Shown: positions 21,875 to 55,513 of the stretch, piece by piece
How positions within the stretch are numbered: the stretch's first letter is position 1
Layout of the letters: every line of letters begins with the position of its first letter
Assembly: GCA_951406725.2 (NCBI GenBank)
Contig: OX597826.1
Span: 46,252,001-46,316,000, forward strand
Reading direction: 5' to 3'
Source of the DNA: Octopus vulgaris
Lineage: Eukaryota
Length of the DNA stretch: 64,000 nucleotides
Notes under the pieces: generated by a model
The model's database searches: none
What the model saw: the letters and a program-made list of their open reading frames with translations, nothing else
Told to the model about the DNA's origin: nothing
Program-made: the position numbers and the translations under genes

Positions 21875-23363
21875 TACCGGAGTAAACACATAAATGTGAA
21901 ACAAGGTGGAAAAAAGAGTACTCAAATACCAGTGGTAGAGTAATATGCTTTATTTTAAGCAGCAGAAAATTCAACAAAATCTGTTACTCTGAGTTTCTCG
22001 TTGCCGTTCATCAGACAGTTTTTGCTAGAATGGAACATATATATTAATTCAATCTATACTCTTACAAACGCTACACCTTTAAAAAGAAATGGACTTGTTT
22101 GATTGGCCCTTTAGAAAAAACGGTCAATCTTCGAGCGATAAACAAAAAGGTCAAAAATATATGTATATATATATAAAAAACTTATAAAAATTATAAAATC
22201 CGAGGAAAAAAACCTATTGCCGTTAATGAAGACAGTACAAATTAATGCATAGAAATTAAACCTGTTATAAATACTGCAATACATATTTATATTAAAATCC
22301 ACATATATATATCAACATACACAAAAGGATGCGCGTAAACGCCATACATACATATACAGACGTATGAATATGAATCTAAATTATACACATAAAAGCATGT
22401 GTACATATATTCACGCAAACCGTCTCGCACGCAAGCTAAAATTCATCTATGTAGCAATTCTCATATACTGAGCAAGGAGGGGGAACGAAAGAAAGGGAAA
22501 GAGAGAAAAAGAAATGAAGGAGGGGTGGGGAAAACTTGTAGCGATATTATTGGCATCTATAGAGGCCAGTATACATACACAAGTTTGAATTGATACATAT
22601 ACATACCGTCGTGTGTATGCGTGCTTACGCACAAGCATACTTTCACTTACACATACACAGATACGCATGCTTACAAATATATATGCTTTGCTATATACAA
22701 ACTTATATAAACATTCTAAATTTGACAACATTGCTTTTTTTAAAAAAAACATTGCTTTTAAAAAATGGGTGCATTAATAAAAATATATACGAAAGACATA
22801 TAAAATAAAATATAACATCCTATTTTGGGTCATTTATAAATAATCAAGGTAATATAAATAATCAAGGTAATCTTATGCAATACAATAACATGAAAACAAA
22901 GTTTGTAGGTTTTTCCTAATATATATGTAGAAACAATAAGACTTTGCTATATGTCCGTCGTAGCGCTCAAGAGTCAAAATCAAAATCAAAAAATCAAAAT
23001 ACAAAATATATACTCTATCCATATGGTATATTTATATTCGACATTTTAAATTTAGCCGTGTGCCTACATAAGTTCATTAATTCACTTCTTTGATTCAAAG
23101 AATTATTGTCTTTGAATAATATGTGCATTTTTTCTAATAAGCAGAGCCTGCACTTGAAATTATATTTGTAAGCTCCATGCCTGTATGGTGCCGCCCTGTC
23201 CAGAATGCTCCATGTCACGTTGAAAGGTGGGGCTTCCTTTTCTTTTAGTTCCCAGACATATTTTGCTAGGCTGGTTTTCTTTCTGTTCTCTGGGTATTTA
23301 AAAGAATTCTTATGAGAATAAAATCTTGTTTTAAATGAATTTTCTGAAGCCCCTGTGTATGTC
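21875..23363 (-). mobile_element. Penelope-like retroelement 3' part (GIY-YIG endonuclease C-terminus, ~1.1-kb 3' UTR, hammerhead); left arm of palindrome
   Basis: Open frame to the stop at 23015: TYTGASENSFKTRFYSHKNSF...TSLAKYVWELKE...WSIL...CRLCLLEK...LNQRSELMNLCRH, typical of PLE (Neptune-like) GIY-YIG domains. The 3' end abuts (TA)n. Confidence 0.88.
21981..22018 (-). ncRNA. Minimal type I hammerhead ribozyme (left-arm copy)
   Basis: Exact reverse complement of 24741-24778. Confidence 0.8.
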
Positions 23364-24811
23364 AAGGTGCAAGTGGAAGGCTCATCGGAATACAAGACAT
23401 ACACAGGGGCTTCAGAAAATTCATTTAAAACAAGATTTTATTCTCATAAGAATTCTTTTAAATACCCAGAGAACAGAAAGAAAACCAGCCTAGCAAAATA
23501 TGTCTGGGAACTAAAAGAAAAGGAAGCCCCACCTTTCAACGTGACATGGAGCATTCTGGACAGGGCGGCACCATACAGGCATGGAGCTTACAAATATAAT
23601 TTCAAGTGCAGGCTCTGCTTATTAGAAAAATGCACATATTATTCAAAGACAATAATTCTTTGAATCAAAGAAGTGAATTAATGAACTTATGTAGGCACAC
23701 GGCTAAATTTAAAATGTCGAATATAAATATACCATATGGATAGAGTATATATTTTGTATTTTGATTTTTTGATTTTGATTTTGACTCTTGAGCGCTACGA
23801 CGGACATATAGCAAAGTCTTATTGTTTCTACATATATATTAGGAAAAACCTACAAACTTTGTTTTCATGTTATTGTATTGCATAAGATTACCTTGATTAT
23901 TTATATTACCTTGATTATTTATAAATGACCCAAAATAGGATGTTATATTTTATTTTATATGTCTTTCGTATATATTTTTATTAATGCACCCATTTTTTAA
24001 AAGCAATGTTTTTTTTAAAAAAAGCAATGTTGTCAAATTTAGAATGTTTATATAAGTTTGTATATAGCAAAGCATATATATTTGTAAGCATGCGTATCTG
24101 TGTATGTGTAAGTGAAAGTATGCTTGTGCGTAAGCACGCATACACACGACGGTATGTATATGTATCAATTCAAACTTGTGTATGTATACTGGCCTCTATA
24201 GATGCCAATAATATCGCTACAAGTTTTCCCCACCCCTCCTTCTATTTCTTTTTTCTCTCTTTCCCTTTCTTTCGTTCCCCCTCCTTGCTCAGTATATGAG
24301 AATTGCTACATAGATGAATTTTAGCTTGCGTGCGAGACGGTTTGCGTGAATATATGTACACATGCTTTTATGTGTATAATTTAGATTCATATTCATACGT
24401 CTGTATATGTATGTATGGCGTTTACGCGCATCCTTTTGTGTATGTTGATATATATATGTGGATTTTAATATAAATATGTATTGCAGTATTTATAACAGGT
24501 TTAATTTCTATGCATTAATTTGTACTGTCTTCATTAACGGCAATAGGTTTTTTCCTCGGATTTTATAATTTTTATAAGTTTTTTATATATATATACATAT
24601 ATTTTTGACCTTTTTGTTTATCGCTCGAAGATTGACCGTTTTTTCTAAAGGGCCAATCAAACAAGTCCATTTCTTTTTAAAGGTGTAGCGTTTGTAAGAG
24701 TATAGATTGAATTAATATATATGTTCCATTCTAGCAAAAACTGTCTGATGAACGGCAACGAGAAACTCAGAGTAACAGATTTTGTTGAATTTTCTGCTGC
24801 TTAAAATAAAG
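23364..24811 (+). mobile_element. Penelope-like retroelement 3' part; right arm of palindrome
   Basis: Reverse complement of the left arm from 23396, plus 32 extra 5' nt in frame (KVQVEGSSEYK). One A is missing in the run near 23625, which frameshifts the GIY-YIG ORF. Ends in a short TA-rich tract. Confidence 0.88.
24741..24778 (+). ncRNA. Minimal type I hammerhead ribozyme in the PLE 3' region
   Basis: CTGT-CTGATGA-A-CG(GCAA)CG-A-GAAA-CTC(A)GAG-TA-ACAG: stem I CTGT/ACAG (extendable to caaaa/ttttg), intact core, near-palindromic stem III, GUA cleavage triplet. Confidence 0.8.
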
Positions 24812-24824
24812 TATATATATGTAT

Positions 24825-47088: not shown

Positions 47089-47597
47089 TACATGTGTATG
47101 TTTATATATATATATATATGTATGTGTATATACATATACAAAAATCAAATGCAAAATTTAATATTTCTCTCTCTCTCTGGAAAATATGATGTTTCAATTT
47201 ATTTCAAGAGAAAACTGTTGTTAATGCAAGGTTTTTTTTCTCTGTTTTTGTTTTGTCTTTTAGAAAGAAAAATGAAAAAAAAAAGAAAAAAAATTGTTTT
47301 CTTTGACACACTAGAATTAATCATTCTTCACATATAAACACTATCTTCTTCCTTCGTCTTACCCCATTTCTCTCACAAACAGACACACACACACTCACTT
47401 CCTTACAGACACATTTATTTTGCATTTCCTAGTATATATATTTTTTTTTTCTGTGAAAGGGAAAGAACTATCTAGAAATGATACACATACATCATAAACA
47501 CACAGTTCATAGGAAAGAAAACACCACCGAAATTAAAATTAAAATAACAAAAATAAAACGAATTTAAAATAAGTAAATAAATACAATAGTCACTTAC

Positions 47598-47798
47598 CTC
47601 AACAGCATAGTGTAGTGCCTTAGCTGCGGGATGAATTAGGAGGTTGTGAAATGGTGTGATTTGGGGTTTTCCCCAACCGCCTTCTGTCGACCATTCAATT
47701 TCAAGCATGTGGTCAGTGAAAAACCTGCCAAAGACCAGCTCATTTGAAGCGGGCTTTGGTTGAGGATTTTTGGATTTCTGAACAATGGCCTGTGCCGC
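47598..47798 (-). CDS. BCAT: Internal coding exon (67 codons, phase 0/0) of a branched-chain amino acid aminotransferase (BCAT/IlvE family)
   Basis: Translates AAQAIVQKSKNPQPKPASNELVFGRFFTDHMLEIEWSTEGGWGKPQITPFHNLLIHPAAKALHYAVE, matching the BCAT N-terminal motifs LVFG..FTDHML..EW...GW.KP.I.P and HP...LHYAVE. Flanked by a pyrimidine tract + TACAG acceptor and a GAG|GTAAGT donor. Confidence 0.93.
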
Positions 47799-47979
47799 CT
47801 GTATTAGCAAGGAAAACAAAAACAAAATAAGAGAGATGAAAGAAAAATGAAATGGTTGAGTGACTTTTATAAATTTATGATTTTGTTTATATTTACAACA
47901 CAAGTGTAAAAAAAAAAAAAAATCAATGTCATTTTTATATTTGGTTTGCAAGATTCTTGGTGTGAACTTGTGTGTTGAA

Positions 47980-52457: not shown

Positions 52458-52577
52458 ATGTTTACAGCACCTAGGTTTCCCAAGCGGTCACCCATCTAAG
52501 TACTAACTAGGCTCGCCTTTGCTTAACTTTGGTGATCGGACGAGAACCGGTGTTTCCAAAGTGATATGGCCGTAAAC
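52458..52577 (-). rRNA. 5S: Full-length 5S rRNA sequence (isolated copy, probably retroposed)
   Basis: GTTTACGGCCATATCACTTTGGAAACACCGGTTCTCGTCCGATCACCAAAGTTAAGCAAAGGCGAGCCTAGTTAGTACTTAGATGGGTGACCGCTTGGGAAACCTAGGTGCTGTAAAC; box A- and C-like motifs are present and helices I, II and V pair. Confidence 0.93.
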
Positions 52578-54463: not shown

Positions 54464-54727
54464 TAGCCTTAAGCACTCTCTCATATAATATAAATATAAC
54501 ATTAGCAATTAATTAACTACTTTATACAACAACAATATTAACGCTATCTTAGTCCTATTGGATATGTCAGCTGGAAAATTTGCAGAGTGCATTGCAGTAT
54601 TTTATCACAGGCCTCTACAGTCTGTGTTCAAATCTCACCTGGGTCAACTTCCTCTTTCATTTCTTAATAAACATAGTACCAGTCGAGTACTGGGTCAACT
54701 GCTACTATTACTGTATCTCCCTCTCTT

Positions 54728-54766
<39 letters not shown>

Positions 54767-54989
54767 GTAGCAGCCCATGCTACTCCAGACTGATGACGAG
54801 CAAAGACTCAGAAACTAGTCTCTGGATGCAGGCTTAGCCGGGTGGAGGTGCTTGTCTCCACCTTGTAAATATAAGGACACAGGAAATGTGTCAAGGCCAA
54901 CAGGAAGCGTTGATGCTTCCTAGGGCTAAATAGCAGTAGTATGATTGCCTTCATGGGACTGTCACATTAAGTTGACAATATACAACTAC
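54767..54989 (+). mobile_element. ~220-nt non-coding hammerhead-bearing element in (TA)n (retrozyme-like, or a solo PLE pseudo-LTR)
   Basis: GC-richer island with (TA)n on both sides; hammerhead plus at least six further hairpins; no ORF. Confidence 0.65.
54784..54826 (+). ncRNA. Minimal type I hammerhead ribozyme
   Basis: TCCAGA-CTGATGA-C-GAG(CAAAGA)CTC-A-GAAA-CTAG-TC-TCTGGA: 6-bp perfect stem I, intact core, palindromic stem III (CTAG), GUC cleavage triplet. Confidence 0.88.
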
Positions 54990-55513
54990 TATATATATAT
55001 ATATATATATATTGAGAGAAACTGACAGACATAAGCAGGCAAGCAGACAGAGAGATATAGATAGTACATAGGTATTGATGGTGACCTTCTGTACAGTTTC
55101 CATGAAGCAAGTTTCAGTTATAAGGCATTGGTCAAACTGAGGCAATATTTAAAGATACTTTAAGGCATAAAGATGTCAGAATTGTTACTACACCAGGAAA
55201 AATGTTTCACTGCAGTTCTTCCGACTGTACATTCTGAGTTCAAATTCCACAGGGGTCAACTTTGCCTTTCATCCTTCTGGAGTCAATAAGATAAGTACCA
55301 GTTGAGCAGTGGGGTTGATGTAATCAACTTACTCCCTCCCATGAAATTACAGGTTATTGTGCAAAAATCTGAAACCAATACTACAAGATACTTGCCCAAG
55401 ATACCATGCAGTGGGTTTGAACCAAAATGCATTGGATTGTAAGCAAACTTATTAACCACTATGCCTGCATCTAGACATACATACGCACACAGATGTATGT
55501 ATGTGTATGTATG

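Follow-up and report, generated by a model that had tools for sequence, protein, structure and literature searches.

A truncated copy of a retrozyme-type hammerhead repeat in Octopus vulgaris, its Penelope-like insertion anatomy, and a LINE that targets its family

Non-LTR retrozymes have been defined in coral, mussel and axolotl (PMC7229834). In the accessible text of that paper they are tandem repeats of 170–400 bp that contain a type I hammerhead ribozyme (HHR), have a GC content under 45–50%, a highly self-paired monomer and no open reading frame, and Penelope-like elements (PLEs) are called a “strong candidate” for moving them. The accessible sections of a 2026 preprint (bioRxiv 10.64898/2026.07.22.740005) argue for a PLE origin of retrozymes in vertebrates, the role of PLEs being supported by co-occurrence and by similarity to pseudo-LTRs. 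Non-autonomous PLEs and pseudo-LTR derivatives (PMC8557442 and the same preprint, from the parts available) occur as partial tandems with an inverted, 5′-truncated arm and an optional, often one-ended 3′ tail, are biased toward (TA)n, and reside alongside PLEs with a C-terminal GIY-YIG domain. Among Tx1 elements, too, some are known to target other transposons (PMC4494074, available part). Active Penelope and L1-Tx1 families have been annotated among octopus repeats (PMC13282606), in an account whose accessible text never mentions ribozyme, hammerhead or retrozyme; the corresponding text of PMC7229834 mentions neither cephalopods nor octopus. No cephalopod retrozyme was found in the open literature searched, nor any combination of a retrozyme with Tx1 or any LINE targeting a ribozyme retroelement.

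We have analyzed a hammerhead-bearing island in a window of 64,000 nucleotides of Octopus vulgaris DNA (Table 1). The ribozyme is present in each unit of a repeat of 349–352 bp (subfamily A) or 362 bp (subfamily H), and the unit resembles the metazoan retrozymes in being non-coding, 42% GC and strongly self-paired as a monomer. It differs from them in its documented PLE-type insertion anatomy and in being targeted by a LINE. The copy in the window is a partial monomer, 93% identical to a natural unit (L012:1372-1723) across unit positions 130–352, and terminates at the short 3′ end of the family. The 223-nt island out-folds 200 of 200 shuffled sequences (z = −3.28), and no open reading frame of at least 120 aa overlaps it, in agreement with its initial description as non-coding; the (TA)n described on both sides is also found, the left flank being a (TC)n(TA)n composite. 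Taken by itself, the family is an added member of a kind already known. Elsewhere on the minus strand of the window lie an exon of a branched-chain amino acid aminotransferase (47595-47804, E = 4e-19) and a 5S rRNA copy (52459-52577, 110.7 bits).

Table 1. Positions in the window of the hammerhead island, its parts and a Penelope-like copy
Feature	Position	Strand	Remarks
5′-truncated copy of ~351-bp tandem hammerhead unit, subfamily A	54768..54989	+	unit positions 130-352
Type I hammerhead (HHR)	54784..54826	+	6-bp stem I, conserved core, palindromic helix III
HHR stem I	54784-54789/54821-54826	+	6 bp, seen in sequence
HHR core CTGATGA	54790-54796	+	seen in sequence
HHR stem II	54798-54800/54807-54809	+	3 bp, seen in sequence
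HHR GAAA	54811-54814	+	seen in sequence
HHR helix III palindrome ACTAGT	54814-54819	+	seen in sequence
HHR GUC site	54818-54820	+	predicted cut after C54820
Distal arm of extended stem I	54768..54783	+	equivalent of LINE site (unit ~125-146), empty in window copy
Rod arm pairing with full-monomer spacer	54841..54874	+	partner absent from truncated window copy
Conserved hairpin	54876..54892	+	93.7% paired, 0 double changes in 29 rows
Conserved hairpin with compensatory changes	54902..54921	+	95.9% paired, 2/7 pairs changed on both sides
Family hairpin TCCC/GGGA and terminal hairpin	54946..54978	+	from alignment
Left flank (TC)n(TA)n, target microsatellite	54717..54766		seen in sequence
Right flank (TA)n	54990..55011		seen in sequence
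PLE-A copy, context outside element	21876..24812		ends approximate; very young active autonomous family
GIY-YIG end of window PLE-A copy	23015-23437	-	inverted partner on plus
Hammerhead-like motif of window PLE-A copy	22014 minus, 24745 plus	both	A·A mismatch beneath 2-bp stem II

The type I hammerhead, its predicted GUC cleavage site and the palindromic helix III are all present where the initial annotation had placed them. No hammerhead model in Rfam matched the window motif even at E ≤ 10, and the hammerhead call therefore rests on our own structural tests. These employed an alignment of 29 rows chosen for diversity, with some misalignment in the rows of subfamilies D and F. Pairing in stem I is 94%, and its pairs covary across subfamilies, all six being changed on both sides, as are two of the three pairs of stem II. 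Measures of the whole structure lay above those of 500 of 500 shuffles, which ignore relatedness, and above every slid control. The hammerhead could be parsed by hand in 28 of the 29 rows; helix III, with a length of 6, 8 or 10 nt, was fully self-complementary in 25 of these, and a C·A mismatch underlay stem II in 23. The window copy has this mismatch (C54797·A54810), which had been overlooked, and with its 6-bp stem I and paired extension the ribozyme is not a “minimal” hammerhead. According to the available descriptions, HHR_Amex1 likewise has a helix III of one pair with a palindromic tetraloop, and HHR_Amex2 a similar mismatch beneath stem II. Sister subfamilies show covariation of the U3-A8 core pair, a variant described in the accessible text of PMC4209133. 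The core pattern has 111 exact matches in the genome and none in the control. The pattern of base changes indicates that the RNA structure of the unit is under selection and that the type I hammerhead is real; self-cleavage is predicted.

The hairpins that had been listed in the island are all found in the window sequence, and the alignment divides them. GACACA/TGTGTC is conserved; AGGAAGC/GCTTCCT also has changes on both sides, as does TGTCA/TGACA, which belongs to the terminal hairpin (54959-54978; 91.9% paired, two of six pairs changed on both sides). The C–G pair of GCAGT/ATTGC occurs in one of the 29 rows, that of the window; the family has a TCCC/GGGA hairpin, 82% paired and disrupted in the window copy by G54947. 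The U–A pair of GGTGGAG/CTCCACC likewise occurs in one of 29 rows; where the unit is complete, the spacer is the pairing partner of this arm. The 5′ hairpin (54767-54783) is paired in only 53% of cells and is thus not a feature of the family. Nor is the folding switch proposed for it supported: in L007, a typical copy, the minimum-energy fold has the extended stem I, and two private bases of the window copy favor the hairpin.

How is the complete monomer folded? The long-range helix from the arm beyond the hammerhead to the spacer was found in seven of seven natural monomers, with −12 kcal/mol for a control lacking the spacer. Folded as a circle, the cut-to-cut monomer adopts a rod shape and gave z = −7.1 in subfamily A (0/60 shuffles as good) and z = −7.4 in subfamily H (0/50). 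A and H share a conserved block of the spacer at unit positions 13–85, absent from the window (72% over 75 nt), the remainder having diverged. A promoter reading of the spacer, based on a TATA-like box and a TCA at the LINE site, was dropped, since this AT-rich stretch supplies the opposite strand of the rod helix. With a single hammerhead, a weakened extension of stem I and no spacer, the copy in the window is probably an inactive end product; it is a fragment of a genuine retrozyme-type family.

A genome search for the island gave 3,063 first-look candidates, of which the 40 scored were 92–100% identical. The island had been taken for a self-contained element of ~220 nt. Copies extend up to ~129 nt further 5′, however, and then into a preceding unit: the element is a head-to-tail unit with a period of 349–352 bp, in which sequence 5′ of the window start recurs 3′ of its end, and dimers and a 2.6-unit array are found. 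Subfamilies B–G are 70–85% identical to A. The tandem arrays and fixed ends that the initial annotation had proposed to look for are seen as arrays and discrete 3′ ends, whereas 5′ ends vary and there is no fixed size of ~220 nt. The 60 de-duplicated loci of subfamily A have 76 terminal 3′ ends: position 352 is the last in 48, the other 28 continue into a tail of ~59 nt, and 39 of the 76 adjoin (TA)4 or (TC)4. Fifteen loci have one direct and one inverted arm; the tail is on one arm in nine and on neither in six. The arrangement agrees with that described for PLEs in PMC8557442. In a 3′-anchored sample, the 5′ ends cluster at unit 118–156, an interval picked after viewing the data that holds 10 of the 21 ends within positions 5–220 (~4 expected). 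There is no pile-up at the cut site (1 of 43 segments within 175–190), which suggests that cDNAs run through the ribozyme site. The trimer L075 lies inside another high-copy repeat, and contigs with the empty site reveal a 7-bp target duplication. Contigs of four presumed-RNA runs cover the unit; they reveal neither strand, ends nor circles. A single unit fragment has been quadrupled together with a C2H2 zinc-finger gene cluster (L158-L161, G000:C29 24.38-24.60 Mb), and its four copies were rejected as independent insertions.

Subfamily H is young, with 1,073 core matches, and is related to A in its spacer (E = 2e-8) and in its layout; it has no equivalent of the 5′-end cluster. Comparing 30 units from 12 arrays on one contig, inverted arms included, we found 0.65 differences within and 3.9 between arrays over ~204 nt. 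The values for the older subfamily A are 4.15 and 4.83, in 62 nt. H arrays reach ~5.6 units and have private variants in common. Such uniformity fits what would be expected from rolling copying of a single circle; linear transcripts of arrays that were already uniform, or local duplication, could also produce it.

The copies of the unit bear the marks of PLE insertion: they occur as partial tandems and with 5′ segments in inverted orientation, their 3′ ends fall at two fixed points, and (TA)n or (TC)n often flanks them. The genome harbors PLEs that are active. PLE-A gave 17,054 candidates, the 150 scored being 99–100% identical, and 727-aa frames are open in many. PLE-B, the second active family, has intact frames of 899 aa; its 3′ UTR, in a simple scan, showed no canonical hammerhead. 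Pfam returned no family for either ORF or for the fragments in the window, and we take these elements to be PLEs on the basis of RT and GIY-YIG/CCHH-type motifs read by eye. Both occur as tandems. Two discrete 3′ ends are found in subfamily H and in PLE-A as well, the latter inserting into (TA)n with the identical short and tailed pattern (tail ~71 nt). The tail of the octopus unit, ~59 nt, compares with 30–40 bp in the accessible descriptions of PLE derivatives (PMC8557442; bioRxiv 10.64898/2026.07.22.740005). Unlike these derivatives, the unit did not match the pseudo-LTR of any resident PLE family that we compared: no DNA is shared with PLE-A (30 loci), with PLE-B and older subfamilies, or with the old PLE at L017.

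The initial annotation had named, as an outcome that would tell against it, longer copies running 5′ into an RT/GIY-YIG ORF. None of the unit copies examined does so. When 128 unit loci were searched by tblastn with the ORF of a resident PLE, a single PLE remnant lay upstream in the same orientation (L017/L088), where the unit is inserted in the 3′ UTR of an old PLE; this PLE is the host of the insertion, because none of 19 other copies of it carries the unit. The distant same-contig pairs of matches at L154 and L155 proved to be unrelated copies. Of the original proposal, the analysis supports a hammerhead retroelement that is non-coding and non-autonomous, has a palindromic helix III and inserts in the manner of PLEs, often beside (TA)n; it does not support the self-contained ~220-nt element or the folding switch. 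An active resident PLE is a candidate type of driver enzyme for the unit. The octopus genome provides evidence at the level of insertions, the same two-ended, inverted, (TA)n-flanked anatomy being present in retrozymes and in active PLEs and the young arrays being uniform, and its intact PLE ORFs and young subfamily H are material for a direct test of trans-mobilization.

The unit is also the target of a LINE. One and the same 1.68-kb ORF1-only insert occupies unit ~125–146 in two subfamily A copies, with the target duplicated, and a third contains its final 119 bp. The pattern of the LINE 3′ end has 236 genome matches (control, 3). Taking the first 30 by position, a hammerhead lies within 45 nt of 16, against 60 of 6,000 random positions (1%); among the others, several begin with the target sequence of the unit followed by another LINE, and ~6 are off-target as judged by eye. 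Intact copies are 5,355 bp, with a CCHC knuckle in ORF1 and APE, RT and zf-RVT domains in an ORF2 of 1,140 aa; the sole protein match to ORF1 is labelled Octopus bimaculoides (54% identity). From 20 loci picked for long frames (one of another lineage, two without a junction) we could read 17 junctions, of which 12 adjoin a hammerhead, two are self-tandem inside a unit and three are off-target. The 5′ junction within the unit is identical in five loci. The site is directly 5′ of the hammerhead, and the target duplication leaves the ribozyme whole. The link holds across ORF1 families, to ~50% protein identity, and the site is kept across subfamilies despite their differing target sequences. The main resident zf-RVT LINE lineage shows no such targeting (1 of 22 junctions flagged, apparently falsely).

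With these domains, a fixed target and a target duplication, the LINE is of L1/Tx1 type, its clade being assigned from the domains, and is site-specific on the unit. It resembles the Tx1-clade LINEs of PMC4494074, as described in the accessible part, in the CCHC of ORF1, the APE, RT and zf-RVT of ORF2, a target duplication of ~15–20 bp and self-tandem arrays, and it likewise uses a fixed site in another repeat, as do Tx1L in Tx1D, Keno in U2 snRNA and SINEU in Mariner-N4. Its target, in contrast, is a ribozyme retroelement, at a site kept even where the subfamily target sequences differ. Composites of LINE and unit have inverted unit arms (L298, L300, L302 and L308), and in L164 and L194 the inverted arms take in the LINE 3′ end. 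These point to PLE-type copying of LINE and unit together, so that the junction counts are not independent. That insertion has happened independently more than once is shown by separate subfamilies that each have duplications of their own, and by truncated LINEs flanked by duplications at L021 and L178.

By what route did the window copy arise? With considerable confidence, we regard it as a truncated non-LTR-type retrozyme, of which the RNA is likely cut, circularized and copied in trans by a PLE into AT-rich DNA. We infer the following steps at the RNA level. Unit arrays would be transcribed, two hammerheads would pair via their palindromic helix III, with cleavage at GUC, and the cut-to-cut monomer would be ligated into a rod-like circle. 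The RT/GIY-YIG enzyme of a PLE would begin cDNA synthesis ~168 nt downstream of the cut, at a site that is fixed, continue backwards through the ribozyme site and stop variably, giving 0.3 to ~5.6 units, and would often add a second, inverted arm during copying. Where a LINE is present, its RNA would be freed from the host transcript by the flanking hammerheads, and the LINE-bearing unit would be re-copied whole by the PLE enzyme. We count against this explanation that eight of nine predicted Xenopus dimers failed to cleave in vitro (bioRxiv 10.64898/2026.07.22.740005, accessible part), and that the rod found its best partner in the cognate one in just four of six subfamilies. Also to be counted against it are the lack of DNA similarity between the unit and either active PLE family, the limited share of subfamily A ends (39 of 76) that adjoin (TA)4 or (TC)4, the six of 15 two-armed loci in which both arms are tailless, and the similar differences within and between arrays of subfamily A. 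The same family and PLE driver might instead use as template a linear, multimeric read-through RNA that stays uncleaved, with no part for circles in mobilization. The cDNAs that cross the cut site without accumulating 5′ ends there would agree with such a template, as would the tandems formed by the PLEs themselves, and copies with a 5.4-kb LINE are harder to imagine as small circles. Yet the conserved rod joins the post-cut region to the next spacer, which is a property of the cut-to-cut monomer, arrays of up to ~5.6 units have private variants in common, and mussel and axolotl retrozymes of similar size are circular in vivo (PMC7229834, accessible text). We consider the linear template rather unlikely.

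Other origins are much less probable. The 5′-end cluster could mark the transcription start of a self-contained ~220-nt RNA beginning near 54768, with the 5′ hairpin as its switch; stalling of reverse transcriptase at the ribozyme accounts for the cluster equally well, subfamily H is without it, the unit is ~351 bp long and the hairpin, poorly paired, depends on private bases, and we think this very improbable. Slightly more remote is the suggestion that the unit is what remains of an autonomous PLE, namely its 3′ pseudo-LTR. It would explain the PLE-type anatomy, the 2026 preprint relates retrozymes to pseudo-LTRs in its accessible part, and our comparison covered two active and one old PLE family; against it, longer copies continue into the previous unit rather than an ORF, and the sole PLE remnant upstream is an insertion host. 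We give as little weight to spreading by the L1/Tx1 LINE itself, through 3′ transduction or as a SINE-like partner. LINE 3′ ends are tightly linked to the unit, but the majority of sampled units have no LINE, unit ends are fixed internal sites without the AATAAAGA end of the LINE, and inverted arms duplicate the 3′ end, as in PLE-A copies. L1 twin priming is not known to duplicate the 3′ end in inverted arms.

Alongside the preferred PLE-copied retrozyme, we tentatively advance, as somewhat short of an even prospect, a system of three tiers, in which a PLE spreads the circular retrozyme and the LINE, specialized on the retrozyme as its target, lands in the distal arm of the ribozyme and leaves it intact, borrows host transcription and the two hammerheads to free its RNA, and is taken whole to new loci by the PLE machinery. 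If true, a ribozyme vehicle would allow the enzyme of one retrotransposon class to mobilize another class. The site-specific LINE partnership, present in the subfamily of the window copy too, is the new part of the system; it would add a class of target for site-specific LINEs and would be a natural example of a retrozyme with 5 kb of cargo. Dependence on co-transcription with the target would be shared with R2 in 28S rDNA, as available accounts describe it. HAL1 (half-L1) elements are ORF1-only, and the ORF1-only derivatives of ~1.7 kb in the octopus lineage are like them. Unlike in R2 and HAL1, it is the host repeat, itself a mobile element, and not the LINE that would here own the ribozyme.

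The LINE also forms self-tandem arrays (L228, L229, L230 and L296-L297), with periods of ~1.8 kb and ~5.37 kb; in some of them, ORF1-only families sharing ~39% identity are mixed at a single target. At L205 (~1160-1182), the sequence before an ORF1-only LINE copy resembles the 5′ end of U1 snRNA, possibly a chimeric retrocopy.
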